Made by a program: the position numbers and the translations under genes
In this document: positions 6,109-54,941 of the stretch, in pieces
Position numbering within the stretch: the stretch's first letter is position 1
Layout of the letters: every line of letters starts with the position of its first letter
The notes under the pieces: generated by a model
What the model was told of the DNA's origin: nothing
The model's input: the letters and a program-made list of their open reading frames with translations, nothing else
Databases searched by the model: none
DNA from: an uncultured delta proteobacterium
GTDB taxonomy: Bacteria > Desulfobacterota > Binatia > HRBIN30
Assembly: GCA_963729835.1 (NCBI GenBank)
Contig: CAVSQF010000023.1
Coordinates: forward strand, 155,739-219,738
Direction: 5' to 3'
Length of the DNA stretch: 64,000 nt

Positions 6109-6219
6109 GAGCTGCGCCCCGCGTCTGTGCGGCGGGCCCGCTCCCGTTGGTCGCTGCGAATGTCTGCGGGAAACTGTCCGTCATGCACCAGGCGCCCGAT
6201 TCGATGAGCAGACTCTGAG
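6109..6219 (+). repeat. Copy A of an approximately 110-nt intergenic element that starts directly after a stop codon
   Basis: About 80 percent identical by hand alignment to 23551-23660, in the same orientation. The shared core is GCGGCGGG(C/T)CCGCTCCCGTTGGTCGCTGC. Confidence 0.7.
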
Positions 6220-23550: not shown

Positions 23551-23660
23551 GGGCTGCGCCCGGCGTACGTGCGGCGGGTCCGCTCCCGTTGGTCGCTGCA
23601 AACGTCTACGGGGGGCTGCCCATCACGTACCCGGCGCCCGATTTGATCACAAGCTCTGAG
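23551..23660 (+). repeat. Copy B of the approximately 110-nt intergenic element
   Basis: See 6109-6219. It also begins at the first base after a TGA stop. Confidence 0.7.
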
Positions 23661-23905: not shown

Positions 23906-24004
23906 GCGAACGTGTGGTTGCCGAATGTGCTCGCCGGTGCCGGATCATCGTCGGCGTACGTCCTTGGACTTCCCGACGCGTCCCACGACCGTGAACAGCT
24001 CGCT

Positions 24005-24454
24005 TTACCGAGCCGGTTTCGCCGGCGGCGCAGCGAGAGCCGTGCCGGTTTGCGAGCCGATCCAGACCGCGCCGTCCTCGTAGTGCTCCTTCTTCCAGAT
24101 CGGCACGCTCTCCTTCAGACGATCGATGGCGAACCGGCAGGCGGCGAACGCGGCGCCCCGGTGCACGGCGGACACAGCGATAACCACGCTCGCCTCACCG
24201 GTCGGGACCACCCCGACGCGATGCACGATGGCGATGCGCGCGATCGGCCAGCGCTGCCGCGTCGTCTCGCCGATCTTGCGCATCTGCGCCAGCGCCATCT
24301 CCGGATAGGCTTCGTACTCCAGTTGTGTGACTCGCCGCCCCCCGTTGTGATCGCGCGTCGTGCCGATGAAGGTCACGGTCGCGCCGGTCGCGGCGTCGGC
24401 CACCGCCGCCGTGACGGCCGTCACGTCAATCGGCTGCGTGACGATGTCGTACAT
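24005..24454 (-). CDS. moaE: Molybdopterin synthase catalytic subunit
   Basis: GATVTFIGTTRDHNGGRRV, LEYEAYPEMA, IAIVHRVG, VPIWKKE. Confidence 0.9.
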   Translation of the reverse strand: MYDIVTQPIDVTAVTAAVADAATGATVTFIGTTRDHNGGRRVTQLEYEAYPEMALAQMRKIGETTRQRWPIARIAIVHRVGVVPTGEASVVIAVSAVHRGAAFAACRFAIDRLKESVPIWKKEHYEDGAVWIGSQTGTALAAPPAKPAR

Positions 24455-24710
24455 GACTGCCTCCGCTCACCGGCGGGATCAACGCGACTTCATCGTTGTG
24501 CGCCAGCCGATGATCGCGGTCGGCGTACTCCCGGTTGACGGCAAACGCGATCGCCGGACCGAGCGTGACCAGCTGTGGATACGCCGCACACAGCGCGTTC
24601 CACAAATCGCTCACGGTGGCGCGCTCCGGCAGCGTCCATTCCGCCTCGCTGCAGCGGAGACGTTCGCGCAAAGAGGCGAAGAAGCGCAGCTGCACGATCA
24701 CCGGCGTCAC
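24426..24710 (-). CDS. moaD: Molybdopterin synthase sulfur-carrier subunit with a 10-aa extension after the GG motif
   Basis: FFASLRE ... DEVALIPPVSGG followed by SHVRHRHAAD before the stop. Overlaps the moaE start. Confidence 0.8.
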   Translation of the reverse strand: MTPVIVQLRFFASLRERLRCSEAEWTLPERATVSDLWNALCAAYPQLVTLGPAIAFAVNREYADRDHRLAHNDEVALIPPVSGGSHVRHRHAAD

Positions 24711-26316: not shown

Positions 26317-26400
26317 TGAAGGCGCAAACATGCGCTCGCATACTGCCGTGAATACGGGGTGTGTAGGCGTCGCATGTGGCTCGTGGGTGACGCAGTGAGT

Positions 26401-26556
26401 CTAATCGGCGTCGTGCGCAGGCCGCCGTTTGCCAACGCGGCGAACGCTTGTGCCACCTCGAAGGGACTGACTTCGGCCGCACCCAGCACGACCGACGGAT
26501 ACGGCGGCAGCGGCGAGGTGATTTCCAAGCGCCGCGCCGCGTCGATGATCGGCGGC
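26401..26556 (-). pseudogene. Fragment of a PBP1A transpeptidase domain (partial duplicate of 28066-28221)
   Basis: About 89 percent nt identity by hand alignment. Translates as PPIIDAARRLEITSPLPPYPSVVLGAAEVSPFEVAQAFAALANGGLRTTPI versus the intact PPVIDMARRLGITTPLPPYPSVVLGAAEVTPFEVAQAFAALANGGLRTTPI. Confidence 0.88.
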
Positions 26557-40670: not shown

Positions 40671-42290
40671 ATGCCGACGATTACGATTGACGGGCGCTCC
40701 ATCGAGGCCCCTGCCGGCGCCATGCTGCTGCCGGTCGCCCTCGAAAATGGCATCCACATTCCCCACTACTGCTGGCACCCGAAGCTGTCCATCGACGGCA
40801 GCTGCCGCATGTGCCAAGTCGAGGTGGAAGGCAGCCCGAAGCTGGTGATCGCCTGCAACATGCCGATCCGCGATGGGATGGTAGTGCGCACGGACACCCC
40901 GGTTGTGCAGAACGCCCGCCGCGGTGTGATGGAGCTGTTGCTCGTCAATCATCCACTCGATTGCCCCATCTGCGACAAGGCCGGCGAGTGTCTTTTGCAG
41001 GACTATTCATTCAACTTCGGCAGCCGCCAGGCGCGCACCCAAGAACCGCGGCGCAAGCTGCAGAAACGCAAGGACATTGGGCCGCGCATGATCCTGGATC
41101 AGGAGCGCTGCATCCTCTGCCGGCGCTGCGTCCGCTTCTGCCGCGAGATCACCGGGACGCACGAGCTCGGCGTGTTCAATATGGGCGACCGCTCCGTGCT
41201 CGACGTCATGGAGGGCGCGCCGCTCGCCAACGACTACTCGATCTGCACGGCGGACACCTGCCCGGTTGGGGCGCTGGAGAGCAAGGACTTCCATCACAAG
41301 TTGCGGGTGTGGTTCCTGAAGAAAACGGAGAGTGTTTGCCCGAGCTGTGCCAACGGCTGCAACATCACGGTGAACCACTACCGCAACCGGATCTGGCGCC
41401 TGATGCCGCGGCGCAATGACGCGGTGAACGAATGCTGGATGTGCGACCACGGCCGCCTCAATTACCAGGATGTGAACAGCCCGGAGCGATTGCGCACACC
41501 GCTGCTGCGGGCGAACGGGCACCTGGCAGCGTGCGGGTGGGACGAGGCCATCAGCGCCGGCGCCGCGCAACTGCGACGCATTGCGCGCGCGTCCGGCGGA
41601 GGCAGCATCGCGGCCGTGGCCTCGCCGCATCTCACCAACGAGGAGAGCTTCCGGTTCGCGCAACTCCTGCGGGCACTGGAGGTGACTAACGTCGATGTCG
41701 CCGTGCGTCTCGGCGCACACGATAGCTTGCTGATCAAATCAGAAAAGGCCGCCAACGCGCGTGGGGCACGTGACATGGGCCTGTGCCCAGGAGCGCATGG
41801 GGTTGGACTCCCGGCGCTGCTCGAGTCCGCGGCGCAGGGGCAGATCCGCGCCCTCTACGTCTGTGGCCCCGATCTCTGGGAAACGGCAGACCGCCAACTG
41901 CTGGAGAAGGCGCTCAGCCATCTCGAGTGTTTGATTGTGCAGGACCTTTTTCGCTCGCCGCTTGCCGAGCGCGCGCACCTGGTGCTGCCGGCGCTGACGT
42001 TCGCGGAGAAAGCGGGCACGTTCACGAATTTCGCCGGGCGCGTGCAGCAGGTACGGTGTGCCATTCAACCGCTCGACGACCAGCCCAGCGATGGCGAGAT
42101 CTTCAGCCGGCTGCTCGGCCAGTTGGTCGAGGGCCGCTGGACCTTCAACCCGCAGGCGGTGTTCGCCGAGATCGCGCAGGCAGTGCCGCAATACGCGGGC
42201 TTGACCTACGAGAAGGTCGGGCTGCTCGGTTGGGCGCTGCCCGCCGGTGACACGCCGCCGCGCGCCGGCGCTGGGGAGGCCGGGGCCTGA
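40671..42290 (+). CDS. nuoG: NADH dehydrogenase subunit G-like (short form, 539 aa)
   Basis: An N-terminal 2Fe-2S domain (CWHPKLSIDGSCRMCQVEV...ACN), HPLDCPICDKAGEC, CILCRRCVRFC, and a truncated molybdopterin-like domain. Confidence 0.85.
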   Translation: MPTITIDGRSIEAPAGAMLLPVALENGIHIPHYCWHPKLSIDGSCRMCQVEVEGSPKLVIACNMPIRDGMVVRTDTPVVQNARRGVMELLLVNHPLDCPICDKAGECLLQDYSFNFGSRQARTQEPRRKLQKRKDIGPRMILDQERCILCRRCVRFCREITGTHELGVFNMGDRSVLDVMEGAPLANDYSICTADTCPVGALESKDFHHKLRVWFLKKTESVCPSCANGCNITVNHYRNRIWRLMPRRNDAVNECWMCDHGRLNYQDVNSPERLRTPLLRANGHLAACGWDEAISAGAAQLRRIARASGGGSIAAVASPHLTNEESFRFAQLLRALEVTNVDVAVRLGAHDSLLIKSEKAANARGARDMGLCPGAHGVGLPALLESAAQGQIRALYVCGPDLWETADRQLLEKALSHLECLIVQDLFRSPLAERAHLVLPALTFAEKAGTFTNFAGRVQQVRCAIQPLDDQPSDGEIFSRLLGQLVEGRWTFNPQAVFAEIAQAVPQYAGLTYEKVGLLGWALPAGDTPPRAGAGEAGA

Positions 42291-42832
42291 TGGCCACGCG
42301 CGTCGTCACCGTCGTTCGCCCCCAACCGATGAGTGAAAGCTGGGCGCGCACCGCTTTCGCCCTCGTGGTGGGACTGTGGGTGACGAACAGCCACTTTCTG
42401 CGCAATCTGTGGGGCTTCCTCCGGCGCAAGCCCACCGTCTTCACCGTGCAATATCCGGAGCAGCGCGTGGCGCTCCCCAATGCCTTCCGCGGCATGCCGG
42501 TGCTGGTGCAGATGGATAACGGGAAGGAACGTTGCGTAGCGTGCGGGCTCTGTGAATGGGCCTGCCCGACCGATTGCATCACCATCTTCCCGGCGGAGAC
42601 AGAGGACGAGATCGAGCGCTACCCGCAGGTGTTCGACATCGAGATGTCGCGCTGCATGTTCTGCGGTCTGTGCGAGGAGGCCTGTCCGGAAGAGGCGATC
42701 GTCATGAGCCAGCAGATGGAGATCACCGCCTACACGCGCGCCGGCACCGTCTGGCACAAACAGGACCTGCTCGTCCCAGTGTCGAAGCTTGCGCCGCGCC
42801 TGCAGCATGTGCGCGGCGGCTACGAACGGTGA
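42290..42832 (+). CDS. nuoI: NADH-quinone oxidoreductase subunit I (two 4Fe-4S)
   Basis: CVACGLCEWACPTDCI and CMFCGLCEEACPEEAI. TGATG overlap with nuoG. Confidence 0.9.
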   Translation: MATRVVTVVRPQPMSESWARTAFALVVGLWVTNSHFLRNLWGFLRRKPTVFTVQYPEQRVALPNAFRGMPVLVQMDNGKERCVACGLCEWACPTDCITIFPAETEDEIERYPQVFDIEMSRCMFCGLCEEACPEEAIVMSQQMEITAYTRAGTVWHKQDLLVPVSKLAPRLQHVRGGYER

Positions 42833-42849
42833 AAGGTTGATGCGAGGGC

Positions 42850-44622
42850 ATGGCTGAAGGGGTAGAATCACAATCTGTGATGCCGTCGGGTGAGGCCCAG
42901 GTGCCGGCGCATCCCGTTCTGGATCGCTTGCGCGAGCGCTTCCCGTCCGCCGGGCTCGCCGGCGGCGTGTACCGCGGCGACGCCAGCCTCAGCGTACCGG
43001 CCGACCGCCTGCTCGAGGTCGCGCGCTTCGTGAAAGAGGATCCGCACCTGCGCTTCGACATGCCGATCGACGTGACGGCGGTCGACTACCTCGGCCAGCG
43101 GCCGCGCTTCGAGGTCGTCTACCATCTACTCTCGACCGTGCATCATCATCGGCTGCGGCTGAAGGCCCGCGTGCCCGAAGAGAACCCGACCATTCCCAGC
43201 GTGACGCCGATCTGGGTGGGCGCGAACTGGTTGGAGCGGGAAACCTACGATATGTACGGCATCCAGTTCAGCGGCCACCCGGACCTGCGCCGCATCTACT
43301 TGTACGATGAGTTCCAGGGATATCCGCTGCGCAAGGACTATCCCAAGGAGAAGCGCCAACCGCTCATCGGGCCCGGGGCGGCGCACACGCAACTGGCGGA
43401 CACCCATCCGTACTCCACCGACTTGCTACAGCCCGTGGGCGGCAGGGGCATGCTCGATACCGAGTTGCTGCGCGTGCAGATCGGCCCGTCGCATCCGGCG
43501 ACGCACGGCACCGTGCGCATCGTGATGGATCTCGATGGCGAGACCATCGTCAACGCCGACGTCCAGGTCGGCTTCCTCCATCGCGGCTTCGAGAAGGAAT
43601 GCGAGAGCGGTTATTACTACCAGGCCATTCCCTACACCGACCGGCTCAATTACTGTTCCTCGATCCTCTGCAACATCGGTTACTGCCTCGCCGTGGAGAA
43701 ACTCCTCGATGTCCAGACGCCACCGCGCTGTCAGTTCCTGCGTGTCATCAGCGGTGAGCTCGCACGGATGTGCGATCATTTCATCTGCCTCGGTGCGACG
43801 GCACTCGAGCTGAGCGCGTTTTCGGCCTTTCTCTACGCCCTCGAAGCCCGCGAGCTGATCTGGGACCTGGTGGATGCCATCTGCGGCGCCCGGGTCACCA
43901 GCAACTACGTGCGTATCGGCGGCGTGAGCGCTGATTTGCCGGACGGGTTTGTGGAGCTGGCACCGCAGAAGATCAAAGCGGCGCTCAAGTTGCTGGTCGA
44001 CATGGAGCGGCTGCTGATCGAGAATCCGATCTTCCGCGGACGCATGGAAGGCACCGGGCGGCTGCCCGTCGAGGAGCTGATTGCCTACGGCGTGTGCGGG
44101 CCGGTGCTGCGTGCAGCCGGGGTCGACCTCGACCTCCGACGCACACAGCCGTACTTGGTGTACGATCAGCTCGACTTCGATGTCCCCCTCGGTACGGCCG
44201 GCGATAACATGGATCGATTCCTCGTGCGTATCGAGGAGATCCGCCAAAGCGCACGCATCATCGACCAATGCTTGCGCCTGCTGCCTGATGGTCCGGTCAA
44301 CATCGACGATCCTGCGATCCGCTGGCCCGGCAAAGGCCGCGTGTACACGCGCATGGAGGAGCTCATCGATCAGTTCAAACTGGTCACCGAGGGTGTGAAA
44401 CCCCCGCCCGGTGAGGCGTACGTCGGCACCGAGTCCGCCAATGGCGAGATTGGATTCTTCTTGGTCAGCGACGGCTCCGGCAAGCCGTACAAGTGCCGTT
44501 GCCGTTCGCCCAGCTTCTCCAACGTGCAGCCGCTGAGTCGTATGATCCAAGGCCGGCTGCTTGCGGACTTCGTTCCGACATTCGACATGATCAACCTAAT
44601 CGGAGGGGAATGTGACCGTTGA
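42850..44622 (+). CDS. nuoCD: Fused NuoC-NuoD subunit
   Basis: The NuoC part has WLERETYDMYGIQFSGHPDLRRI. The NuoD part has IGPSHPATHGTVRIV, FLHRGFEK and a C-terminal RSPSFSNVQ...GECDR. No hydrogenase CxxC motifs. Confidence 0.9.
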   Translation: MAEGVESQSVMPSGEAQVPAHPVLDRLRERFPSAGLAGGVYRGDASLSVPADRLLEVARFVKEDPHLRFDMPIDVTAVDYLGQRPRFEVVYHLLSTVHHHRLRLKARVPEENPTIPSVTPIWVGANWLERETYDMYGIQFSGHPDLRRIYLYDEFQGYPLRKDYPKEKRQPLIGPGAAHTQLADTHPYSTDLLQPVGGRGMLDTELLRVQIGPSHPATHGTVRIVMDLDGETIVNADVQVGFLHRGFEKECESGYYYQAIPYTDRLNYCSSILCNIGYCLAVEKLLDVQTPPRCQFLRVISGELARMCDHFICLGATALELSAFSAFLYALEARELIWDLVDAICGARVTSNYVRIGGVSADLPDGFVELAPQKIKAALKLLVDMERLLIENPIFRGRMEGTGRLPVEELIAYGVCGPVLRAAGVDLDLRRTQPYLVYDQLDFDVPLGTAGDNMDRFLVRIEEIRQSARIIDQCLRLLPDGPVNIDDPAIRWPGKGRVYTRMEELIDQFKLVTEGVKPPPGEAYVGTESANGEIGFFLVSDGSGKPYKCRCRSPSFSNVQPLSRMIQGRLLADFVPTFDMINLIGGECDR

Positions 44623-46474
44623 GCAACCCAGCGGCGCCGTGACCACCACCGGGGGTGGCACTGCGTCGGGGGCGACGCCAGCCTACAAACTCTCGGCCGA
44701 ATGCCGGGCGCGGATCGTCGCCGAGCGAAAGAACTTTCCCCAGGCGCGCGCGGCCCTGATGGCGGCCCTGCATCTGGCGCAAGCCGAGTACGGCTACTTG
44801 CCGCGCGCCATTGTCGACGAGGTCGCGGAGTTGCTCGAACTGCTGCCCATTCAAGTGCAGGAAGTGGTCTCGTTCTACCCGATGTTTCACGCCGAGCCGG
44901 TCGGCAAGTGCCACATCCAAGTCTGTACGAACATCGCCTGCGCCCTGGGCGGCGCGCGCAAGCTGGTCCGCCAGATCGAGTCGACCCTGGGTATTCGTGC
45001 CGGCGAGGTCACGGCGGACGGTAAGTTCTCGCTGGCGGAGGTGGAGTGCCTAGGCTCCTGTGGCACGGCTCCGGTCGTGCAGGTGAATGATCGGCCGTAT
45101 ATCGAGTGCGCCACTGCGAGTGATATCGAGCAGCTCCTCGGCGGTGCCGATCCGGCGACGTTGGAACGGGCGCCGGGGCTGTCGATGATTCCCGAAGGCA
45201 TCGAGGGGTATCTCCTGCCGCCCAATGGACAGTCGCGGTGTGCGATCGACGAGTACCTGGCGGCCGGCGGGTACCAGACCGCGCAGCGGGCGTGGCGCGA
45301 GATGCAGCCGGAGGCGATCACCGAGATCGTCAAGGACTCCGGGTTGCGCGGGCGCGGTGGTGCCGGTTTCGTCGCTGGGCTGAAGTGGACCTTCATGCCG
45401 AAGCAGTCGACGAAACCGTGTTACCTGGCGGTGAACGGGGACGAGAGTGAACCGGCAACGTTCAAGGACCGCCAGATCATCGAGCGCAACCCGCATCAGT
45501 TCATCGAAGGCGCGCTGATCGCCGGGCGCGCGATCCGCGCCGTGGCGGCATACGTCTACCTGCGCGGCGAATACGTCACCCCGTACCGGATCCTCATGGA
45601 GGCGATTTCAGAGGCGTATGGGCGCGGGTTCCTTGGCGACAATGTGATGGGGACCGGGCAGCGCTTCGACATGTACGTGACACGGGGCGCCGGAGCGTAC
45701 ATCTGTGGCGAAGAAACCGGCATGATCGAGTCGGCGGAAGGCAAGAAGGGACAACCGCGTAAACGACCGCCCTTTCCCGCCGGCTGGGGGCTGTGGGGGT
45801 GCCCAACCACGGTCAACAACATCGAAACGATTTCCCACGTCCCCTTCATCCTGCAGCGTGGGGCAGACTGGTTCAAGAAAATCGGTACCGAGAAGAGCAC
45901 CGGCAACACCCTCTTCGGCATCAGCGGCCACGTACGCCGTCCCGGCGTGTACGAAGCGCCGCTCGGCACGCCATTGCAGGAGATCATCGAGCGTTACGCC
46001 GGCGGCATGGCGAACGGCCGGCCGCTCAAAGCCATCATTCCCGGCGGGGTGTCGATGCCCGTGCTCACGGCCGACAAACTCGGCGTCCGCATGGATCACG
46101 ATTCGCTGCAGAAGGCGGGCACGCTCCTGGGCACCGCCGGCATCGTGGTGCTGGACGACTCCGCGTGCATGGTGCGCGCGGCGCTGGTGATCGCGCGCTT
46201 TTTCCGGCACGAGAGCTGCGGACAGTGCACGCAATGCCGCGAAGGCACGGCGTTCCTCTACAAGCTTTTGAAGCGCATCGAGAGCGGCGGTGGCCGTCTC
46301 GAGGACCTCGACACGATCAATAGTGTCTGTGGCTTCATGGAGGGGCAGACGATCTGTGCCCTGTCCGATGCGGCGGCCTGGGGCGTGGGAAACTTCGCGC
46401 GGCGGTTTCGCGCCGACTTCGAGCGGCACATCACCGAGCAACGCTGTCCGTTCCCCGACAGCTTCGAGGCGTGA
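44612..46474 (+). CDS. nuoEF: Fused NuoE-NuoF subunit
   Basis: NuoE 2Fe-2S (VCTNIACALGG...CLGSCGTAP), then NuoF GLRGRGGAGF, GEETGMIES, ESCGQCTQCREG. GTG start overlaps the nuoCD end. Confidence 0.9.
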   Translation: MTVEQPSGAVTTTGGGTASGATPAYKLSAECRARIVAERKNFPQARAALMAALHLAQAEYGYLPRAIVDEVAELLELLPIQVQEVVSFYPMFHAEPVGKCHIQVCTNIACALGGARKLVRQIESTLGIRAGEVTADGKFSLAEVECLGSCGTAPVVQVNDRPYIECATASDIEQLLGGADPATLERAPGLSMIPEGIEGYLLPPNGQSRCAIDEYLAAGGYQTAQRAWREMQPEAITEIVKDSGLRGRGGAGFVAGLKWTFMPKQSTKPCYLAVNGDESEPATFKDRQIIERNPHQFIEGALIAGRAIRAVAAYVYLRGEYVTPYRILMEAISEAYGRGFLGDNVMGTGQRFDMYVTRGAGAYICGEETGMIESAEGKKGQPRKRPPFPAGWGLWGCPTTVNNIETISHVPFILQRGADWFKKIGTEKSTGNTLFGISGHVRRPGVYEAPLGTPLQEIIERYAGGMANGRPLKAIIPGGVSMPVLTADKLGVRMDHDSLQKAGTLLGTAGIVVLDDSACMVRAALVIARFFRHESCGQCTQCREGTAFLYKLLKRIESGGGRLEDLDTINSVCGFMEGQTICALSDAAAWGVGNFARRFRADFERHITEQRCPFPDSFEA

Positions 46475-46477
46475 AGA

Positions 46478-46608
46478 CAGCCGTCAGCAGTCAGTGGTCA
46501 GCAGTCAGCTGAGAACACTCATGTACCGAACAGCCGTCAGCAATCAGCAGTCAGCCGTCAGCAGTAAAGAAGGAGCTGATCGCTGAGAGCTGAAGGCTGA
46601 CAGCTGAT
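46478..46608 (+). repeat. Intergenic array of GTCAGC-type short repeats that can fold into a long imperfect hairpin
   Basis: ACAGCCGTCAGCAGTCAGTGGTCAGCAGTCAGCTGAG and ACAGCCGTCAGCAATCAGCAGTCAGCCGTCAGCAG. 46545-46562 pairs at 16 of 18 positions with 46589-46606. Confidence 0.75.
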
Positions 46609-46623
46609 AGCGAGGGATCCTCT

Positions 46624-46926
46624 ATGCCCGGTCCGATACTTCGAAACGTCGTAGTACGATATTTCGGCACGCCGGATGTCGCCGAAGGCAGCGTCAACGA
46701 GCCGCGCGAGCACGACGAGCACGGGATGCGTTTCAACGAGAAGTGGGTCTATCGGCATCCGCTACGCGATCCCGCCGGCGCCGCCGAGCGCATCATCTAC
46801 TGGCACCGCTACGATTACGTCGGCTCGGTCATTCGCACCAGCAAAGATGGCGAGTGGCGGAAGGACGACCGGCTCCCTGCGCTGCTGATGAACGCACCCG
46901 GCCGGCAGGCGTCAGCGCACACATAA
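46624..46926 (+). CDS. Hypothetical 100-aa protein; its 3' end is the repeated junction sequence of island 3
   Basis: GAGGGA lies 6 nt upstream of the ATG. No family recognised. Confidence 0.5.
   Translation: MPGPILRNVVVRYFGTPDVAEGSVNEPREHDEHGMRFNEKWVYRHPLRDPAGAAERIIYWHRYDYVGSVIRTSKDGEWRKDDRLPALLMNAPGRQASAHT
46840..46886 (+). repeat. Direct repeat copy A (inside the 3' end of ORF 46624..46926)
   Basis: AGCAAAGATGGCGAGTGGCGGAAGGACGACCGGCTCCCTG is identical over 40 nt to 53631-53670 (46 of 47 nt when extended). Confidence 0.9.
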
Positions 46927-46986: not shown

Positions 46987-47244
46987 TCAGTCGGGTTGAG
47001 GGCGTCCTTCAGCAAGAGTTCGGTGCCGACGATCACCGCGAGCTTCCGCACGGTCGCTCGCGGCGGTAATGCTCTGGACCTTGATGCGGTGGGCGGTCTT
47101 CTCGGCTTGGGCGAGGTCGTACTGCATCTGCAGACCGAGCCAGACCTCCGGACGGCTGCCGAAGGCCTTGGCCAGCCGTATGGACATCTCGGGGGAAATG
47201 CCCGCCCTGCCATTGACGAGGTTGTTGAGGGTCTGGCGCTTCAC
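46987..47244 (-). CDS. higA: HigA-family XRE-HTH antitoxin, probably 5'-truncated; no toxin gene is adjacent
   Basis: KRQTLNNLVNGRAGISPEMSIRLAKAFGSRPEVWLGLQMQYDL. Homology continues upstream (AAARLGV) but is cut by an in-frame TAA at 47263-47265. Only a GTG start is available. Confidence 0.55.
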   Translation of the reverse strand: MKRQTLNNLVNGRAGISPEMSIRLAKAFGSRPEVWLGLQMQYDLAQAEKTAHRIKVQSITAASDRAEARGDRRHRTLAEGRPQPD

Positions 47245-47415
47245 ACCAAGGCGGGCGGCCGCTTACGGCGACGGCGGGCCGGCCCCATTCACTCTCGTGA
47301 GTTTGCTGGGGCTTGACAAGGACAACCATCAAGTGGTTTATGCCGCATCGAGGACTTGCGCGCGCGGAGCGGTCACAGACAAAGCACCCTGAACCAGAGG
47401 CAGGGAGGTTCGGCT

Positions 47416-50400
47416 ATGGAAAAACATCCGATCCGTCGTGGAATTGTTCGGCTCTTGTTGCTGCCTCTGTTTGCCGCCGCACCAGTGTGTGTTGTACCAC
47501 GGCAAGCTGCAGCGCAAGCACTCGATGTTGATGGGAACGGTAAAGTCGATGTGGCGACGGACATCGTCTACATCGCCCGTCGGTTGCTGGGCCTCGCGCC
47601 CGTGCCCGCCAGCTTCCGAGCTGCTGACCCGACCATTCCATCGGACACGACAGTAGGCTCGAACGTCGACGCACTCGGCACCGCACTCGATGTGGACGGG
47701 AACGGCACCGTCGATGTCGCGACGGACATCGTGTACATCGCGCGGGCCCTGCTCGGCCTACCACCAGTGCCCGGTAGTTTTCGGCAGCTGGACCCGACAA
47801 TTCCCGACGACGCGACGATTGCTGCACACATCCCCGTGCTAGCTGGGCTGCTATCGTTCGGGAATCAGGTTGTTGGAACAACAAGTCCCCCGCAAAGCGT
47901 CGCGTTTACGAATTCTACCGGCACCCCGGTCGTTGTGAGCAACGTCTCTACCAGCGGCGACTTTCTTCAAGCTGGTGCGTGCCTGGGAACACTTGCACCG
48001 AGCCAGACGTGCAGCATTTCGGTCGCGTTCAGTCCAAAGTCGATCGGCCCACAGAGAGGCAGCCTAACGATCGCCGAGAACGTGACGGGTAAGTCCTATA
48101 CCGTGACGCTACTCGCCACGGGCGTGACCCCGGCGTCAGTCGACGTTTCGTTTGCTCCCCTGCCTGGTTCGAACGCCGAAAACCTCGTAGCAGTGAGTTC
48201 TCTCGGCGAGAGCCCGATCGGCGTGGGTGCGTCCACGGCAACTTTCCCTACGGCGCCGAACCTAGTGCAGATCGTCGCGCTGATGGATAACTCCCGGGGA
48301 TTCGGCTGGACCGCTGTCTCACCCGCATGGTTCCAAGATCAATCAAGCCAGCCGATTGGCCCCTTATCTACGGCAGTACAAATGGTGTTTTCACTTCCTT
48401 TTGTGTTCAGCACGAGTCCCATAAACGCCGCTCGGACAGTAAACATTCTCACTGGTTTACCTGAGGTTCAGGCATTAGCCACCGCATTACAAGGCGCAGC
48501 GGGAGGTTCTAACCCCTTAACAGACCCCTCGGTCGTTTCTGCATACTCGGCGGCGGTAGCAGCTTCGCTGGCAGCACTAAACGCGGCCCCAAGTGCTGCC
48601 GCACGACGCTCACATAGTCAGCCCAGTAGCGTCCGTGTGTCGATTACCGAGGGGCAGCGGCGCACCGCCGTGGAGCGGCCACTTCTGGAAACTGCATCCT
48701 ATCTGGTTTCAGAGCAAACTTTGCCGCAACAGCCGCAGGATCTACAGGCCACTCGCATCAATATCGATCCGTCCATTCCCTCGATACAGCCAGCCTGGAG
48801 TTCAAATGTTGACATAACCGATCAAGGCCTATTCTGGATCGGGTTCGTATTCCCGGCTAAATTGGCGTTTCCGTCTGAAGCGACGTTTACGCAAGCCTTG
48901 CTGACTGACTGGCAGAGCAACCAATCGAGAAACTGGGCTTCCTACGTGCCGGCAATTTCGTCTCCTTATGTGCCGCTGCGCAGCCAGTCGGGTAACCTCG
49001 TAACATATCTGCAGCCGAGCACTTGGGCGAACGGCATGTACGTTAGCGACGCGGAGGAACTTCTAGGAAACTTGATCGCACGGCACGTCGGCGCGCCGGA
49101 CACCGGTACCGCTCAGCCTTCGTTTGACCTACCGACGCACTCCAACGCGTACATTGTACACCTCTATGGCTGTTCGTATGATGTTCGGGATAGATTGATC
49201 CTAAACAATCAGAATGCCCCAAATGATTTTGCTCTCCTAGCGAACTGGGACCCGCCAGTGGCACAGACGGGCTGGACTGCGTCTTGCGCCGCTACGCTGC
49301 TGACACTGTTCTACGATGACCTCAACGAACTACTTTCAATATTGCCGTTGCCTGCCGGGGAGTCCATTCTGTCTTGCGTGCTGACCAACGAAGCCCAAGA
49401 TCAAATCGTTTCCGACCTCGACCAAGACCTGACGAACGCCTTCCAAGGCGCCTACAGCGGCGTCGGCACAGCACAGGGTATCGAGGACGCCCTGGCTGTC
49501 GCAGGTCTCCGCTTCGCGAGCAACTTCACACAGAAGCTTGGGCCGTGCATAGCGCAAGAAGGCGTTTCCGACGTGTTGAAAGCGTTGGTGTCTCTGGTGT
49601 CGGCGGAGTTTGGGGCACTCTTGAACGCAGTCATCCTACCGACGAACGCTTGCGCGATGACCTCCGGTTACCCCACAGCGACAGCGTTCTGCGATCAGTT
49701 TTCGCGGTTTTTCATGTTCAGGCCTTGGGAAGGTACGGTTGTTCAGGTCGGCTCCGACCCATGGGCATGCGGCACCAATGAGTGCTCGCCGGAAGGAGCG
49801 ACTCAGTGCTTCGATGCGCACACCCAACAGACATGCATCGCGGACGGATCGGGTTGCCTGACGTGGGGGGCCGATTACCAGTGTGCGAACGGCTGCGTCG
49901 GTGCGGCCTGTGCGACCTGCGTAAACGAGTGCTCGGCCGGTCAGACACAGTGTCTGAACTCGACGACACAGCAGACGTGCGGCGACTACGGTTCCGGGTG
50001 CCTGACGTGGGGGTCGGACTTCCAGTGCGCCGACGGGTGTGTTGGTAGTGCATGTGCCGCCTCGCCCGCCGGCGGCTCGATTCTCATTTTCCCCAATATT
50101 GTGGCCGGAACAACGCAGGGTGATACGAGCCTACAAATCACCAACGTATCGCAGATGCCAGTGTTTCTCACTTGCACTTACTTCAACCGTTCGGCAACAG
50201 CCCCACTGCCAGGTTGCACCGATTTGTCTTTTACGCTTTTCTTAACCGGCTCAGGTGACCCGGCATACTCCTCAACATCATGGCTCCTGAGTACTGGTGA
50301 GCGGATGGGTGCCGGCTTTATACCTCCTACCGCGGATTTCAGTGGCGACTTGGTATGCGTAGCATGCACAGCACCCCCTTTCGTTCAGCCGCTCATGCAG

Positions 50401-53046
50401 AATGTCCTGATGGGCTCTGCGGCGTACGTTGGCCCCGGTGACGGTTTCAGCGGGAACGCCATTCAGATACAGGCACTTAGGACCAGCCGGGATTGCGTCC
50501 TCCGGCTCAATGGCGCCGAGTATGGTACGTGCCCATCGAGCATCTCCGACGCACAGCTGGCGTGCTGGAATCAGGACGCCAGCTGTCAGGGACCGTTCTT
50601 TTTTGCAGCAAGGTGCAACAATAATGGGACGATTGATCCGGGTGAAGAGTGCGACGGTGCCGATCTCGGCGGCGCAACCTGCCAATCGCACGGGTTCATG
50701 AATGGTGGAACTCTGACGTGCAACGGCGATTGCACAGTGAACACTATTGGCTGTTGCAATGAGTGTGCGCCGGTCAACATGACACAATGTCTTGACGAGA
50801 GCACAGAGCAGACTTGTTCGGATAACGGCTCTGGCTGCCTGACATGGGGTGAAAACCAGACGTGTCCAAGTGGTTGCTATGTGGGTTTCGTCAATGGCTG
50901 TTGCAATGTTGGCGGATGCGCCGAATCCGCATCTGCGTGTGGCCTTGCGGAATACGCGGTCCCCACGGCCTACAGCGGCCCCGTTGATATCACCACTGGT
51001 CTGGATGGCAACCTGTGGTTCACGGAGCAGAGCGGTAACAAGATTGGTAAGATCACTACCTACGGCGACTTTACGGAATACGCGGTCCCCACGGCCTACA
51101 GCGGCCTCGGCGAGATCACCACTGGTCCGGATGGCAACCTGTGGTTCACGGAGGAGACCGGCAACAAGATTGGAAAAATGGGCATCTCCATTTCCGAGTA
51201 CCCGATCCCGACGGCCAATGGTCAGCCCGGTGACATCACCACTGGTCTGGATGGCAACCTGTGGTTCACGGAGCACATCGGGAACAACATTGGTAAGATC
51301 ACTACCGACGGCGACTTTACAGAATACGCGATCCCTACGGCCAACAGCGGCCCCCGTGCCATCACCTCCGGTCCCGATGGCAACCTGTGGTTCACCGAGG
51401 ACAACGGCAACAAGATCGGCACGGTGACCACCTCCGGCAGCTTCACCGAGTACCCCATCCCCACTGCTGACAGTGGGCCTTCCGACATCACCACTGGTCC
51501 GGATGGCAACCTGTGGTTCACGGAGAGGAGCAACAGTAAGATAGGCCGCATAACGACGGGTGGAACAATCACAGAATTTTCGCTTGCTGCAGGTGCAGGC
51601 CCATCCAACATCACCACCGGTCCGGATGGCAACCTGTGGTTCACGGAGATTATTGCCAACCGCATCGGACGGATAACGCCAGGAAGTCCGAACAGCGTTA
51701 CTGAATTCGGGCTTCTGGCCGCCAACAGCCCATTCGGTGTCCCCGCTGCGCTTGGTGCCATCACCAGTGGTCCCGACGGCAATCTGTGGTTCACCGAATT
51801 AGACGGCAACAACATCGGCCGCATCACAGTTTGCCCACAAGCGTGTGGAAATTCGATTCGTGAAGGCTCGGAGCAGTGCGACGGGAGCGATGATGCCGCG
51901 TGTCCGGGAGCGTGTCAGGCGGATTGCACGTGCGGAGCGTCCCCGACTCCAACAGTCCCGCCGACGGATACCGCGACCACTATACCGACAGCTACACCGA
52001 CGCCGACCGAGACACCGACGCCGTGCTTCACCGACAACGGCGACGGCACGATCACCGACAATACGACGGGCCTGATGTGGGAGAAGAACGACCAGTCCGG
52101 AGGCATCCACGACTACAGCAACACGTACACGTGGGGCATGACGGGCTCGCCGTACACGATGAATGGGACGATGGTGACGACGTTTCTGGCGACTCTGAAT
52201 GCGGGCGGTGGCTTCGCCGGCCACACGGACTGGCGGATTCCAAACATGAATGAGTTGCAGAGCCTCGTGAACTACCAGAACGTGTCGCCGGCCGTCGATA
52301 CGGCCTTCAATACGGGCTGCGGCGCGAGTTGCACGGTGCTCACGTGCAGCTGCACGCAGCCGGGCTACTACTGGTCGTCTACTACCTACCAGGGCCTTCC
52401 GACCGACGCGTGGTACGTGGACTTCTACGCCGGCGCCGGGCACGCCGGCTCTAAGAGCTACGGCAGCTATGTTCGCGCAGTCCGTGGTGGCTCGTCCCAA
52501 CTGCTGCGAACCGGGCAGACGAGCGACTATGGGGCGGGCAGCGACGGGAATTTGCAGGAAGGAGCGGCGCGGTCCTACACCGACAACGGCGACGGCACGA
52601 TCACCGACAATACGACGGGCCTGATGTGGGAGAAGAACGACCAGTCCGGAGGCATCCACGACTACAGCAACACGTACACGTGGGGCATGACGGGCTCGCC
52701 GTACACGATGAATGGGACGATGGTGACGACGTTTCTGGCGACTCTGAATGCGGGCGGTGGCTTCGCCGGCCACACGGACTGGCGGATTCCAAACATGAAC
52801 GAGTTGCAGAGCCTCGTGAACTACCAGAACGTGTCGCCGGCCGTCGATAGGGCCTTCAATACGGGCTGCGGCGCGAGTTGCACGGTGCTCACGTGCAGCT
52901 GCACCGTCTCCTACCTCTACTGGTCGTCTTCTACCGTCGCTGCCCACCCGAACCTCGCGTGGCTCGTGGACTTCAGCAATGGCTACGTGTACAACAGCTT
53001 CAAGTTCAGCCTCTACCACGTGCGTGCCGTGCGCGGTGGCTTGTGA
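47416..53046 (+). CDS. Giant (1876 aa) secreted mosaic protein: 2 dockerin-like EF-hand repeats, ASH/choice-of-anchor-D-like domain, about 540 aa with no recognisable domain, 3 Cys-rich modules, Myxococcus-type Cys repeats, 7-blade Vgb (streptogramin-lyase)-like propeller, PT linker, 2 DUF1566 domains
   Basis: AGGGAGG lies 7 nt before ATG 47416. Signal peptide is RLLLLPLFAAAPVCVVPRQAAAQA. Domain motifs: DVDGNG(K/T)VDVATDIVYIAR twice; LSFGNQVVGTTS...TCSISVAFSP; CSxGxTQCxxxxTQQTCxxxGSGCLTWG three times; ITTGPDGNLWFTE seven times; TGLMWEKNDQSG...WRIPNMNELQSL...VRAVRGG twice. Confidence 0.88.
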   Translation: MEKHPIRRGIVRLLLLPLFAAAPVCVVPRQAAAQALDVDGNGKVDVATDIVYIARRLLGLAPVPASFRAADPTIPSDTTVGSNVDALGTALDVDGNGTVDVATDIVYIARALLGLPPVPGSFRQLDPTIPDDATIAAHIPVLAGLLSFGNQVVGTTSPPQSVAFTNSTGTPVVVSNVSTSGDFLQAGACLGTLAPSQTCSISVAFSPKSIGPQRGSLTIAENVTGKSYTVTLLATGVTPASVDVSFAPLPGSNAENLVAVSSLGESPIGVGASTATFPTAPNLVQIVALMDNSRGFGWTAVSPAWFQDQSSQPIGPLSTAVQMVFSLPFVFSTSPINAARTVNILTGLPEVQALATALQGAAGGSNPLTDPSVVSAYSAAVAASLAALNAAPSAAARRSHSQPSSVRVSITEGQRRTAVERPLLETASYLVSEQTLPQQPQDLQATRINIDPSIPSIQPAWSSNVDITDQGLFWIGFVFPAKLAFPSEATFTQALLTDWQSNQSRNWASYVPAISSPYVPLRSQSGNLVTYLQPSTWANGMYVSDAEELLGNLIARHVGAPDTGTAQPSFDLPTHSNAYIVHLYGCSYDVRDRLILNNQNAPNDFALLANWDPPVAQTGWTASCAATLLTLFYDDLNELLSILPLPAGESILSCVLTNEAQDQIVSDLDQDLTNAFQGAYSGVGTAQGIEDALAVAGLRFASNFTQKLGPCIAQEGVSDVLKALVSLVSAEFGALLNAVILPTNACAMTSGYPTATAFCDQFSRFFMFRPWEGTVVQVGSDPWACGTNECSPEGATQCFDAHTQQTCIADGSGCLTWGADYQCANGCVGAACATCVNECSAGQTQCLNSTTQQTCGDYGSGCLTWGSDFQCADGCVGSACAASPAGGSILIFPNIVAGTTQGDTSLQITNVSQMPVFLTCTYFNRSATAPLPGCTDLSFTLFLTGSGDPAYSSTSWLLSTGERMGAGFIPPTADFSGDLVCVACTAPPFVQPLMQNVLMGSAAYVGPGDGFSGNAIQIQALRTSRDCVLRLNGAEYGTCPSSISDAQLACWNQDASCQGPFFFAARCNNNGTIDPGEECDGADLGGATCQSHGFMNGGTLTCNGDCTVNTIGCCNECAPVNMTQCLDESTEQTCSDNGSGCLTWGENQTCPSGCYVGFVNGCCNVGGCAESASACGLAEYAVPTAYSGPVDITTGLDGNLWFTEQSGNKIGKITTYGDFTEYAVPTAYSGLGEITTGPDGNLWFTEETGNKIGKMGISISEYPIPTANGQPGDITTGLDGNLWFTEHIGNNIGKITTDGDFTEYAIPTANSGPRAITSGPDGNLWFTEDNGNKIGTVTTSGSFTEYPIPTADSGPSDITTGPDGNLWFTERSNSKIGRITTGGTITEFSLAAGAGPSNITTGPDGNLWFTEIIANRIGRITPGSPNSVTEFGLLAANSPFGVPAALGAITSGPDGNLWFTELDGNNIGRITVCPQACGNSIREGSEQCDGSDDAACPGACQADCTCGASPTPTVPPTDTATTIPTATPTPTETPTPCFTDNGDGTITDNTTGLMWEKNDQSGGIHDYSNTYTWGMTGSPYTMNGTMVTTFLATLNAGGGFAGHTDWRIPNMNELQSLVNYQNVSPAVDTAFNTGCGASCTVLTCSCTQPGYYWSSTTYQGLPTDAWYVDFYAGAGHAGSKSYGSYVRAVRGGSSQLLRTGQTSDYGAGSDGNLQEGAARSYTDNGDGTITDNTTGLMWEKNDQSGGIHDYSNTYTWGMTGSPYTMNGTMVTTFLATLNAGGGFAGHTDWRIPNMNELQSLVNYQNVSPAVDRAFNTGCGASCTVLTCSCTVSYLYWSSSTVAAHPNLAWLVDFSNGYVYNSFKFSLYHVRAVRGGL
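52029..52355 (+). repeat. Internal duplication copy 1 (first DUF1566 domain)
   Basis: 325 of 327 nt are identical to 52578-52904 (offset 549 nt). Mismatches are at 52251 and 52301. Confidence 0.9.
52578..52904 (+). repeat. Internal duplication copy 2 (second DUF1566 domain)
   Basis: See 52029-52355. The antisense track ORFs 52052..52243 and 52601..52792 are identical proteins, which confirms the repeat. Confidence 0.9.
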
Positions 53047-53630
53047 TCGATCTGATCCATTGACCACCTGAGTCACGGAGAGCCGCTGGGTGCATGCCTG
53101 GCGGCTCTGGGGAGGCCCCTTAGGCTGGTTGGGTTGGTTGCAGTGGTGTTACAGGGGGAGCCGCTGGAGCCTTCTGGTAAGGCGGTCGGGCTATGGCAAG
53201 AAGCTCATCTGCAAACTTGCTGAGCTCTGTGTTCGTCGTTTTCAGGTCGTCAACGAGTGCCGCATAGCGTGGGTACTGCCGCTGTATTTCTTGAGGGGAC
53301 GTAGAGTTTGTGAAAAAATCGTCGGCCTGCGAATTTGGCCCATTGATTTCATTGAACTTTATCGTCACGAAATGTTCGATTTGGGGATTTTTTCACAAAG
53401 TCGTAGCGCGGAATTGGCGGAATTGTGCGTGTGCCCGGCGCTCTCGGAACGTAGTTTCATTTGTTCCGTTCACCGGCGCTAGTACTGATTGTAATATATA
53501 CGTATAGAGTGATACTTGACACTCATCCTCAATGCGCCATACTACGCAGCTCATGGGCGCGGACCGTGATTGGATGCCCCCGGGGTTCTGCATCACGTGA
53601 TGGCGCGGGGGATTGAGCGGTGGGAGATCA

Positions 53631-53677
53631 AGCAAAGATGGCGAGTGGCGGAAGGACGACCGGCTCCCTGAGCTGCT
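53631..53677 (+). repeat. Direct repeat copy B (orphan fragment of the 3' end of ORF 46624..46926)
   Basis: A 40-nt perfect match to 46840-46879. It translates as SKDGEWRKDDRLPELL, preceded by an in-frame stop, so it is non-functional. Confidence 0.9.
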
Positions 53678-53872
53678 CACGAAAATGGTTCCCGCTCAGG
53701 CAGAGCTAGCAGAAGCCTGAGCAAATAGGCTCAGCCGCCGCCGCCGGGACGTACCCGATTTCGCCCGGCAAGCTGGATGACGGCAGCGGGATTGGTATGG
53801 CCTCAGCGAGGCTCTCAACCACCCCGTGTTGGGGGGTCGCCTGAGCCTCGGGCGCGTGCTATCAGATGTGTC

Positions 53873-54121
53873 ATGGCACGGGTGAATTTGACACTGGATG
53901 AACACACGTATGCTCAGCTCGATCAGCACGCCAAGCGACTGGGTAAGCCCCGCGCGCGCGCCGTAAAAGACCTTCTGGTCGAGGGGCTGGCCCGCCACGC
54001 GACCCACGAGCGGCGCCAACGGCTGGCCCGCGACTACGCGGCGGGGCGTGCGGACGCGCGCGCGCTGTTGAACGACCTGGAGTCGGGTCAATTCGATCTG
54101 CTAGATGATGAACGCTCGTGA
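53873..54121 (+). CDS. RHH (CopG/MazE-like) antitoxin
   Basis: MARVNLTLDEHTYAQLDQHAKRLGKPRARAVKDLLVEGL is a ribbon-helix-helix. Overlaps the downstream toxin gene. Confidence 0.75.
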   Translation: MARVNLTLDEHTYAQLDQHAKRLGKPRARAVKDLLVEGLARHATHERRQRLARDYAAGRADARALLNDLESGQFDLLDDERS

Positions 54122-54479
54122 AGCGGTCGACTTCCGCCGCGGCGACATTCTCTGGATCCACTGTGAGCCCTCGGTAGGCGTGGAGCCACGCAAGCTTCGC
54201 ACCTGCGTGGTGGTGTCCAACGACATCGCCAACCGGTTCGGGCAAGCCGTTACGGTGGTGCCGACCCAGGCGTACACGGCCGAGCGAGCGGGGCGCGCCT
54301 ACATGGTCGACTTGCGCCGCCCACGCTCGAACCTCGACACGGGGCGTGTTGCCAACGCCTCTATGGTCATGACCTACGATAGGCGGCGCGTGGTCAAACG
54401 CGCCGGGCGAGTCAGCGCTCAGGCCCAACAGGCGTTGGACGAGGCGCTCAGCGTCCACCTCGGCTTATCGGCACTCTGA
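54105..54479 (+). CDS. mazF: MazF/PemK-family endoribonuclease toxin
   Basis: RRGDILWIHCEPSVGVEPRKLRTCVVVSNDIANRFGQAVTVVPTQ ... ASMVMTYDRRRV. Confidence 0.85.
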   Translation: MMNAREAVDFRRGDILWIHCEPSVGVEPRKLRTCVVVSNDIANRFGQAVTVVPTQAYTAERAGRAYMVDLRRPRSNLDTGRVANASMVMTYDRRRVVKRAGRVSAQAQQALDEALSVHLGLSAL

Positions 54480-54881
54480 GCCGAGTAGTGAGTGCTCCAC
54501 GTTCACCTCGCTACGTCTTGTCGCAATAATGTGCTGGCTGCTCGATCGCCTGCACGCGGAAGGTGCGACAGTCTGGCTGTCAGCATTACGGGACCTCGCT
54601 GACGAGCTGATCCCACGTCTCCGACGGCGTTTCTCGGCGTGAACGGATATAGTTCACACCATGAACGATTTGTTAGTACCTGACGCGGCTGCGCGGGCAT
54701 TGGAGCATTTCCTCGACAAGCACGAGCAGGCCCGCCGGTACCGACCTGTACCGCCTGTCGCCCCGCATCGTTGCCGCGCCACTGGCATCGCTGCTCGCCT
54801 GAGCGGGCCGCGCCCAGGTGTTGGGCTCAGGCGGCTCCCCATGATCGGCGAGAAGACGATGCAGGGTGCCGAATCGAAAAC

Positions 54882-54941
54882 TACGTCGGCTCAATGATCC
54901 GCACGAGCCAAGGCGGGGAGTGGCAGAAAGACGACCAGTGA
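54882..54941 (+). repeat. Direct repeat copy C (diverged)
   Basis: About 79 percent identical (45 of 57 nt by hand) to 46816-46873. It translates as YVGSMIRTSQGGEWQKDDQ* versus YVGSVIRTSKDGEWRKDDR. Confidence 0.6.

Follow-up and report, generated by a model that had tools for sequence, protein, structure and literature searches.

Large mosaic secreted proteins are commonplace in Binatia and Myxococcota. Here we describe one such protein, a chain of 1876 amino acids (aa) encoded in a 64,000-nucleotide (nt) stretch of DNA from an uncultured delta proteobacterium of the Binatia lineage HRBIN30 (GenBank assembly GCA_963729835.1, contig CAVSQF010000023.1, positions 155,739 to 219,738 of the forward strand). 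We refer to this whole stretch as the window, and positions are counted from its first nucleotide. The protein can be compared with several described families, each of which it resembles in part. Virginiamycin B lyase (Vgb; Staphylococcus aureus 2Z2N and 2Z2P, S. cohnii 2QC5; PF24684) is a single-domain enzyme of about 300 aa that folds as a seven-bladed propeller with the blade motif ITxGPDGxLWFTE..NxIGRIT, in which polar side chains that are conserved in blades 6 and 7 bind Mg2+ and the substrate (PMC8916777). Lcl of Legionella pneumophila is a secreted adhesin that carries a C-terminal DUF1566 domain (PF07603) with a C-type-lectin-like fold; it is a trimer on a collagen-like stalk, and its cationic, disulfide-free head binds sulphated glycosaminoglycans (PMC11162425). 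Clostridial type I dockerins (PF00404) contain two Ca2+ loops of the D-x-D-G-N-G type, each followed by a helix. In these dockerins, the helix reads LTLLKRYLLG. The DUF4215 or "Myxococcus cysteine-rich repeat" proteins, which are 300 to 700 aa long, carry a GEECD-type module.

From the sequence alone, an original prediction had described the 1876-aa protein as a secreted mosaic with an unfamiliar combination of domains and proposed that it was a binder or an enzyme. The first part of that claim holds for the architecture as a whole, which had no match in about 5.8 billion sequence clusters (best query coverage, 34%); two scans of metagenome contigs likewise returned no close relative. It does not hold for the parts. 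A core of immunoglobulin-type (Ig) domain, a domain that we call X, and propeller recurs in proteins P0024, P0120, P0143, and P0126, and the combination of a cysteine-rich module with DUF1566 recurs in P0265 and P0273. As a whole, the architecture is unique in the collections searched, but it is built of recurring pieces. The only new element is domain X, whose family is rare and unannotated and for which no structural neighbor could be detected in PDB or BFVD.

An exported protein made of binding-type modules

The gene appears to be intact. Its open frame runs uninterrupted from 47356 to 53046, a Shine-Dalgarno sequence stands 7 nt upstream of the ATG, and the protein collection contains an identical entry, P0001, which forms a singleton cluster and occurs on one contig of 288,844 bp. 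Read directly, the signal peptide opens with a basic n-region, continues with a hydrophobic core of 15 residues, and closes with the cleavage motif A-Q-A, in the order MEKHPIRRGIVR, LLLLPLFAAAPVCVV, PRQAAAQA, with cleavage predicted before L35. The mature chain has a computed pI of 4.17 and 65 cysteines. From these features, we infer a real, intact, strongly acidic extracellular protein that would be exported past the inner membrane by the Sec route and be rich in disulfide bonds. We rejected a lipoprotein reading because the A-P-V that precedes Cys25 does not fit the usual lipobox. A scan for promoters and terminators near the gene found nothing above background.

All of the modules that had been proposed for the protein were found again (Table 1), two of them with the qualifications given below: the signal peptide, two dockerin-like Ca2+-loop repeats, the Ig domain, three cysteine-rich modules of roughly 48 aa, cysteine-rich modules of the GEECD and SEQCD kinds, a seven-bladed propeller, the Pro/Thr linker, and two DUF1566 domains. 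The proposal of a secreted or surface mosaic with binding-type modules also stood, given the Ig domain, the symmetric propeller, the C-type-lectin-like DUF1566 pair, and the cysteine-rich spacers. With moderate confidence, we interpret the protein as a non-catalytic, multivalent adhesin or lectin-like binding protein. This interpretation is based on the fact that the modules are of binding type only, that spacers and a Pro/Thr linker are present together with a Ca2+-binding pair, and that the protein has no recognizable catalytic domain. In such a protein, the propeller and the DUF1566 domains would recognize a ligand on another surface, be it a glycan, a polymer, or another cell, while the Ca2+-binding dockerin-like pair would tether or oligomerize the chain. 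The C-terminal modules are set apart from one another by Cys-knot-like spacer modules and the Pro/Thr linker.

An argument can be made against this interpretation on several grounds. We saw no LPXTG, PEP-CTERM, type IX secretion system C-terminal domain, or lipobox in the protein, and with no anchoring signal visible, the protein may be either displayed on the surface or released. The AlphaFold2 (AF2) model of domain X is of moderate confidence (pLDDT 71.6, pTM 0.60), and the alignment of 27 diverse sequences leaves room for an enzyme or toxin role in a closer subfamily that conserves Y-x-x-HLY-x-C. Furthermore, the DUF1566 copies are acidic and contain cysteines, so the glycosaminoglycan-binding mechanism of Lcl is not simply transferable. 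Finally, the case against catalysis by the propeller depends on His228, Glu268, and His270 as the metal ligands of Vgb (S. aureus numbering), an assignment that reportedly goes back to Korczynska and colleagues in 2007.

Domain X defines a rare family

The stretch between the Ig domain and the cysteine-rich modules had been described as a long region with no recognizable domain. It is true that no model in Pfam, NCBIfam, or PHROGs matches it, but the region proved to be a conserved domain with 126 representatives. Alignments to three proteins delimit it. P0024 aligns at 31% identity in an alignment that also spans the preceding Ig domain, and it has an NHL/Vgb-like propeller further downstream. 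P0070 aligns at 26% identity and continues with seven TIG domains, and P0120 aligns at 29% identity and continues with a Pro/Thr linker and a Vgb-like propeller. A profile built from P0024, P0070, P0118, P0119, and P0120 is matched over its full length by aa ~239-785, including the FGW, STAV, Y..HLY.C, and PWEG..V.VG.PW motifs. When a six-sequence profile was used for an exhaustive search of 1.84 billion representative proteins, 126 representatives were recovered at E < 1e-3, 45 at E < 1e-10, and 27 at E < 1e-30. A search of PDB sequences with a 27-sequence profile gave only chance matches to antibody VH domains (E >= 0.04). The 1876-aa protein therefore belongs to a rare family that is defined by an undescribed domain of about 550 aa.

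Members of this family share a layout. A signal peptide, in some members joined by dockerin-like and Ig/TIG modules, comes first; domain X follows, still close to the N-terminus, and interchangeable modules come after it. These include Vgb-like propellers (P0143 and P0120), NHL propellers (P0024 and P0126), and RCC1 propellers (P0125, P0134, and P0147), as well as PKD, TIG, and fn3/ChiA_N repeats and, in proteins of 2000 to 2800 aa, a beta-helix with PD40. The nearest counterparts in layout are P0024, P0120, P0143, and P0126, metagenomic proteins of which some have been named "virginiamycin B lyase" automatically. Like the 1876-aa protein, they have a signal peptide, in some cases with a choice-of-anchor D Ig domain after it; their X domain is 26 to 31% identical to its X domain along some 550 aa, and a linker then leads to a propeller of the Vgb-like or NHL type. 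Unlike it, they have no dockerin-like pair, no Cys-rich modules, no counterpart of aa 884-1066, and no DUF1566 pair, and they cover at best 34% of the query.

The structural model of X was built from 27 sequences; an earlier model from 6 sequences reached a pLDDT of 41 and was not used. In the model, the N-terminal part is a beta-sandwich with helices (pLDDT > 90); a disordered, variable linker connects it to a beta region in the middle, and long helices form a bundle at the C-terminus. Foldseek comparisons of the model with PDB (best E 0.17, TM 0.14) and with BFVD returned nothing significant. Across the 27 sequences, T319, P328, and G779 are invariant and G297, A320, Y579, P770, and P782 nearly so, and the members of a conserved cysteine pair, C586 and C624, each occur in 19. 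No His, Asp, Glu, Ser, or Lys is invariant, and the alignment therefore points to no catalytic center.

Among six X-family loci examined, no functional neighbor was conserved. The P0120 locus adjoins a resolvase, an IS110 element, two toxin-antitoxin pairs (PIN/PhdYeFM and Xre/RES), and an Mrr nuclease, and the P0143 locus adjoins a phage integrase and an IS21 element. Directly upstream of P0120, at 5713-6129 of locus L001, lies a gene of the avidin family (PF01382). A pattern scan of genome contigs for domain X produced 44 matches, none of which was confirmed.

These observations bear on the possibility that the protein is a secreted antagonistic toxin. In that case, X would act as the effector, perhaps as a helical bundle that acts on membranes, with the propeller, the DUF1566 domains, and the Ig module serving to bind receptors of competitors or prey, as in bacteriocins and polymorphic toxins. 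We consider this unlikely, although it has arguments on its side. Within the family, X stays constant and the modules C-terminal to it are exchanged, the propeller has its closest relatives in the RHS/YD-repeat proteins P0005 and P0019 (46 to 49% identity), and family members occur in mobile or variable regions beside toxin-antitoxin, integrase, and insertion sequence genes. In addition, the C-terminal half of X is modeled as a bundle of five to six long helices with a conserved, moderately hydrophobic helix, and the weak top Foldseek matches are all membrane helical bundles. Those matches are not significant, however, and the hydrophobicity of the helix is borderline (Kyte-Doolittle, about 1.5 to 1.9), with a conserved Asp inside it. 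Furthermore, no candidate immunity gene adjoins the gene, no neighbor is conserved across the six loci, and X lies on the N-terminal side, where the toxin domains of polymorphic toxins are not usually found, as they tend to be C-terminal. A broader proposal, likewise unlikely in our view, is that X is a new fold and forms the functional head of modular effectors that are secreted by Binatia and by other uncultured bacteria of soils and sediments and that make up a previously unrecognized class. Such an effector could be a toxin or a new enzyme that is targeted by the propeller, Ig, and lectin modules and spread by small integrative islets.

Calcium-loop repeats and the Ig domain

The N-terminus of the mature protein had been assigned two dockerin-type Ca2+-binding repeats. 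The repeats themselves are confirmed, with 38 of 55 residues common to both copies. Their identity as dockerins is borderline: against a cutoff of 22.9 bits, the Dockerin_1 model (PF00404) scored 27.2 bits when the N-terminus was scanned alone and 21.5 bits, which is under the cutoff, when the full protein was scanned. Matches to EF-hand models were weaker than that to Dockerin_1. Like clostridial type I dockerins, each repeat has a loop of the D-x-D-G-N-G type followed by a helix, which here reads IVYIARRLLGL. Unlike them, the two loops are 55 aa apart, each helix is followed by a conserved tail, PVPASFRxxDPTIPxD, and the module stands at the N-terminus of a protein that has no known cohesin partner and comes from a non-cellulolytic organism. 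It is a conserved, mobile module, and copies with 60 to 70% identity are found at the C-terminus of P0064, a subtilase, and inside P0025.

Given these repeats, the protein could be part of a cohesin-dockerin assembly of the cellulosome type, in which its N-terminal dockerin would plug into a scaffoldin on the cell surface. Such a role would overlap with that of the adhesin or binding protein that we favor, but we find it doubtful. A score above the cutoff for the isolated N-terminus speaks for it, as do the occurrence of the module on the subtilase P0064 and on other secreted proteins and the fact that several domain-X proteins (P0128, P0178, and P0180) likewise begin with Dockerin_1 matches. 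Yet the score is borderline, and the spacing of 55 aa is much wider than that in canonical dockerins. No cohesin was detected when 20 open reading frames (ORFs) of the window were scanned with Pfam, and none of the modules of the protein is a carbohydrate-active enzyme. Peer and colleagues, moreover, reportedly noted in 2009 that dockerin-like modules are widespread even where cohesin partners are lacking.

The Ig-type domain that follows is less ambiguous. It had been described as resembling the ASH and choice-of-anchor D types, and the NCBIfam model NF012200 matches it above threshold (52.5 bits versus a cutoff of 45; 5.9e-14). The Pfam matches to ASH, DUF1573, and HYDIN Ig domains were all under their cutoffs.

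The propeller lacks the Vgb metal site

The propeller is clearly of the Vgb family. All seven blades are matched by the Pfam model Vgb_lyase (PF24684; 4.9e-106), and the PDB entry 2z2n aligns at 7.6e-72. The original prediction had taken the further step of calling the blades lyase-like and had suggested that the catalytic residues be checked, and here the reading as an enzyme failed. In the alignment with 2z2n, His228 and His270 of Vgb stand two residues before the "I(T/C)" motif of blades 6 and 7, respectively, and Glu268 stands four residues before the motif of blade 7; the entry 2z2p differs from 2z2n by H270A. In the 1876-aa protein, blades 1 through 7 carry V, G, G, R, S, S, and G at the first of these positions (-2) and G, G, Q, G, G, G, and A at the second (-4), so that the catalytic residues are conserved in none of the seven. 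The propeller holds only one His, H1287 in FTEHIGN, which is at a different blade position. With no His at -2 and no Glu at -4 in any blade and a single stray His, the loss of the metal site holds in any blade register. Consistent with this, the NCBIfam models for Vgb(A) and Vgb(B) scored 247 and 242 bits, far under their equivalog cutoff of 600.

The blades also differ from those of Vgb in being more uniform. Their mean pairwise identity is 59%, compared to 42% in Vgb, and the cores of the blade repeats, which are about 126 nt long (repeats D1 and D2), are 73 to 93% identical at the DNA level. High uniformity of blades is typical of repetitive binding scaffolds. As judged from the sequence, the uniformity seen here fits such a scaffold better than it fits an asymmetric active site, and the propeller, although a Vgb relative, is very unlikely to act as a streptogramin lyase. 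Moreover, what is a complete enzyme in Vgb is here one module within 1876 aa.

A more general enzymatic reading would make the protein an extracellular lyase or lactonase that acts on a cyclic depsipeptide or polymer, toward which the other modules would direct the propeller. Its strength is the family-level similarity to Vgb documented by the Pfam and 2z2n matches, together with the precedent of related propellers such as CylK, which carry out different chemistry at different sites (PMC8916777). We nevertheless judge it improbable: the His/Glu/His site is absent in every register, the one His is isolated, the score is well under the Vgb equivalog cutoffs, and the blades are near-identical, with none differentiated as an active-site blade.

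DUF1566 domains and cysteine-rich modules

The C-terminus carries the two DUF1566 domains that had been proposed. The two PF07603 matches have a combined E value of 1.8e-57 (193 bits versus a threshold of 34.9), and one copy covers the profile completely (positions 1-117 of 117). The second copy is identical to the first at 107 of the first 110 residues but at only 21 of the last 47, and at the DNA level the two share a repeat (D3) with 98% identity over 300 nt. This pattern argues for a partial duplication, or for gene conversion, in the recent past. Weak NCBIfam matches were obtained to Lsa25 and FimD, both of which are adhesins. In comparison with Lcl, there are two tandem copies here, which are acidic (computed pI 4.6 and 5.3) and contain four to five cysteines each, and collagen repeats are absent. 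The ligand of these copies is probably different from that of Lcl.

Between X and the propeller, and again after the propeller, the protein is rich in cysteine. The three modules of 48 to 50 aa are 50 to 65% identical to one another, and each contains the GSGCLTWG motif, as had been predicted. The module is rare and was found in about seven other proteins. Over aa 781-1178, no match was obtained in Pfam, NCBIfam (E up to 10), or PDB, and residues 900-1050 are nearly orphan. The prediction had also named cysteine-rich repeats of the Myxococcus type, a claim that stands by way of homologs but not by way of the models. About 120 high-scoring segment pairs from 66 proteins map to the GEECD module in BLASTP at 50 to 66% identity, and those proteins carry PF13948; likewise, aa 1051-1125 are 50 to 66% identical to dozens of PF13948/DUF4215 proteins with the JGI name "cysteine-rich repeat protein". 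The PF13948 and TIGR02232 hidden Markov models themselves gave no direct match on the protein (aa 781-1178, E up to 10). The DUF4215 and cysteine-rich repeat proteins differ further in having no X, propeller, or dockerin-like repeats. Downstream of the propeller, aa 1477-1693 align to P0265 and P0273, two DUF4215+DUF1566 proteins that share the order of Cys-rich module, linker, and DUF1566 at 38 to 55% identity.

The recurrence of such junctions helps to answer the concern that the ORF is a chimera of mis-joined repeats or a decaying pseudogene, a concern raised by the seven blade repeats of about 126 nt, the 300-nt repeat at 98% identity, the singleton status of the protein on one contig, and the absence of close relatives from two metagenome scans, but one that we regard as highly improbable given a 5.6-kb frame that is open in DNA of about 60% guanine plus cytosine (GC), a proper Shine-Dalgarno sequence and signal peptide, repeats that are all in frame, independent homologs for every module, and the reappearance in unrelated assemblies of both the X/Vgb-like propeller junction (P0120 and P0143) and the Cys-module/DUF1566 junction (P0265 and P0273).

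Genomic setting

Outside of the islets described here, the window is ordinary chromosome, with nuoG, nuoI, nuoCD, nuoEF, rpoD, aroA, PBP1A, a Lon-like protease, ABC-F, and malic enzyme. Its NuoCD is 76 to 79% identical to that of Candidatus Binatia metagenome-assembled genomes (MAGs), and the host is assigned to this group on that basis. The small gene occupies the position right behind nuoEF in more than 45 related loci as well, with 74% identity in one of them (L004; tblastn), while a homolog of the big gene was found by tblastn in 0 of 80 related loci. GC content is 55 to 60% inside the big gene compared to 62 to 67% in the flanks.

The big gene had been placed on an island bounded by perfect repeats. 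The location stands: the segment is low in GC and inserted. The nature of the boundaries does not. The repeat copies are 53 nt long with 50 of 53 positions matching, and they are remnants of the neighboring core gene rather than termini of an element. Because the segment is low in GC, because the 3' end of the small gene is present in three copies, and because that gene is core in more than 45 relatives while none of the 80 loci has a homolog of the big gene, we infer that a small insertion into the 3' end of this conserved gene beside the nuo operon brought in the big gene as its only cargo. The three 3' ends of the small gene show increasing decay, which suggests a recurrent insertion hotspot without an integrase. 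Two successive insertions probably produced this arrangement, with the ribbon-helix-helix (RHH)/MazF pair arriving first and the big gene second, each bringing a replacement 3' end and shifting the older copy downstream. No integrase is left at the big-gene islets. A tRNA-targeted island was also considered and rejected, as the window contains no tRNA and the duplicated sequence comes from the 3' end of a gene that codes for a protein. A search of the window against Rfam was negative.

Several features lie in or next to the islets. The match of HTH_3 to the HigA-like ORF covers only positions 21-53 of 55 in the profile, beginning at residue 1; no HigB partner is visible, and the gene is probably an islet remnant. 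The stretch with the lowest GC content (52%; 53100-53560) is just 3' of the big gene and contains a minus-strand ORF of 82 aa (53120-53368) together with the sequence that best matches a sigma-70-like promoter (TTGACA-16-CATACT, 53516-53543), which faces the RHH/MazF pair. Upstream, nuoG-nuoI-nuoCD(fused)-nuoEF(fused) form a compact cluster (40671-46474) that is conserved in Binatia and related MAGs, and the intergenic region between nuoEF and the small gene (46475-46588) consists of degenerate short CAGC(A/C)GTCAG repeats (family D5).

Table 1. Coordinates of the 1876-aa protein gene, its modules, and the adjoining islet features in the window
Feature	Position	Strand	Evidence
Small core gene (100 aa), conserved, 3' of nuoEF; repeat copy A at its 3' end (46840-46892)	46624..46926	+	tblastn
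HigA-like HTH_3 fragment, N-terminally truncated, inside islet 1	46987..47244	-	Pfam
Shine-Dalgarno GGGAGG, 7 nt 5' of ATG 47416	47403..47408	+	Direct sequence reading
Complete ORF, 1876 aa and stop codon	47416..53046	+	ORF call; identical protein P0001 in protein collection
Sec-type signal peptide, aa 1-34, AQA cleavage motif	47416..47517	+	Direct sequence reading
Two 55-aa dockerin-like/EF-hand-type Ca2+-loop repeats (aa 35-144), LDVDGNGxVDVATDIVYIARxLLGL...	47518..47847	+	DNA repeat D7; Dockerin_1
Choice-of-anchor D/ASH-type Ig domain (aa ~144-236)	47845..48123	+	NCBIfam NF012200
Domain X (aa ~239-785), unannotated conserved domain	48130..49770	+	Homology to P0024, P0070, P0120; exhaustive search; AF2 model
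Cys-rich 48-aa modules 1 and 2 (aa 787-835, 836-883), GSGCLTWG type	49774..50064	+	Internal repeat comparison
Middle region (aa 884-1066), 8 Cys, nearly orphan	50065..50613	+	1-3 partial homologs, e.g., P0263
GEECD Cys-rich module (aa 1067-1113), DUF4215/"cysteine-rich repeat" type	50614..50754	+	Homology to PF13948 proteins
Cys-rich 48-aa module 3 (aa 1114-1163)	50755..50904	+	Internal repeat comparison
Seven-bladed Vgb-family beta-propeller (aa ~1179-1472), without Vgb metal site	50950..51831	+	Pfam; PDB; repeats D1 and D2
Short Cys-rich module CGNSIREGSEQCDG...CTC, SEQCD type (aa 1473-1507)	51832..51936	+	Internal repeat comparison
Pro/Thr linker (aa 1508-1536)	51937..52023	+	Direct sequence reading
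DUF1566/Lcl_C domain 1 (aa 1537-1693)	52024..52494	+	Pfam PF07603 at residues 1544-1690
DUF1566/Lcl_C domain 2 (aa 1720-1876)	52573..53043	+	Pfam; repeat D3
Repeat copy B, right end of islet 1; 50/53 nt identical to copy A	53631..53683	+	Repeat D10
RHH antitoxin and MazF/PemK toxin pair, islet 2	53777..54479	+	Pfam
Repeat copy C, degraded, at the right end of islet 2; encodes ...YVGSMIRTSQGGEWQKDDQ	54862..54938 (approximate)	+	Sequence comparison

Other features of the window

A few elements elsewhere in the window deserve mention in their own right. Two direct repeats were found. The first (D6) is 100 nt long, with copies at 6106-6205 and 23548-23647 that are 83% identical and 17.4 kb apart; the first copy starts at the stop codon of the ORF at 5401-6108, the second lies upstream of the ORF at 23912-24538, and neither matches Rfam. 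The repeat may represent a conserved element, either regulatory or mobile. The second (D4) is 161 nt long and 87% identical (26396-26556 and 28061-28221), with one copy inside the PBP1A gene (27465-29879, minus strand), and it may reflect a partial gene duplication. An intact transposase gene of the Mutator family (IS256-like; Pfam 6.4e-73) is located at 11143-12423 on the plus strand. Finally, the minus strand at 3583-5298 encodes a protein of 571 aa with two halves of GILT/DsbA-like thioredoxin fold and an internal duplication (D9/D11; 3957-4147 and 4887-5077) at a spacing of 930 nt. If it is a periplasmic thiol-disulfide oxidoreductase, this protein would matter for the folding of Cys-rich exported proteins such as the 1876-aa protein.

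Implications

Automatic annotation would call the 1876-aa protein and its relatives "virginiamycin B lyase", which is the name of a resistance gene, and P0120 already bears that name. Since the catalytic site is absent here, the protein is a clear case of family-level over-annotation, which inflates resistome counts in soil metagenomes. At the level of the genome, repeated insertion without an integrase at the 3' end of the small gene beside the nuo operon may serve as a marker for variable islets in Binatia genomes. More generally, domain X, which spans about 550 aa, has about 126 representatives, and is without a Pfam or NCBIfam model or a structural neighbor in PDB, merits the definition of a family and a solved structure.

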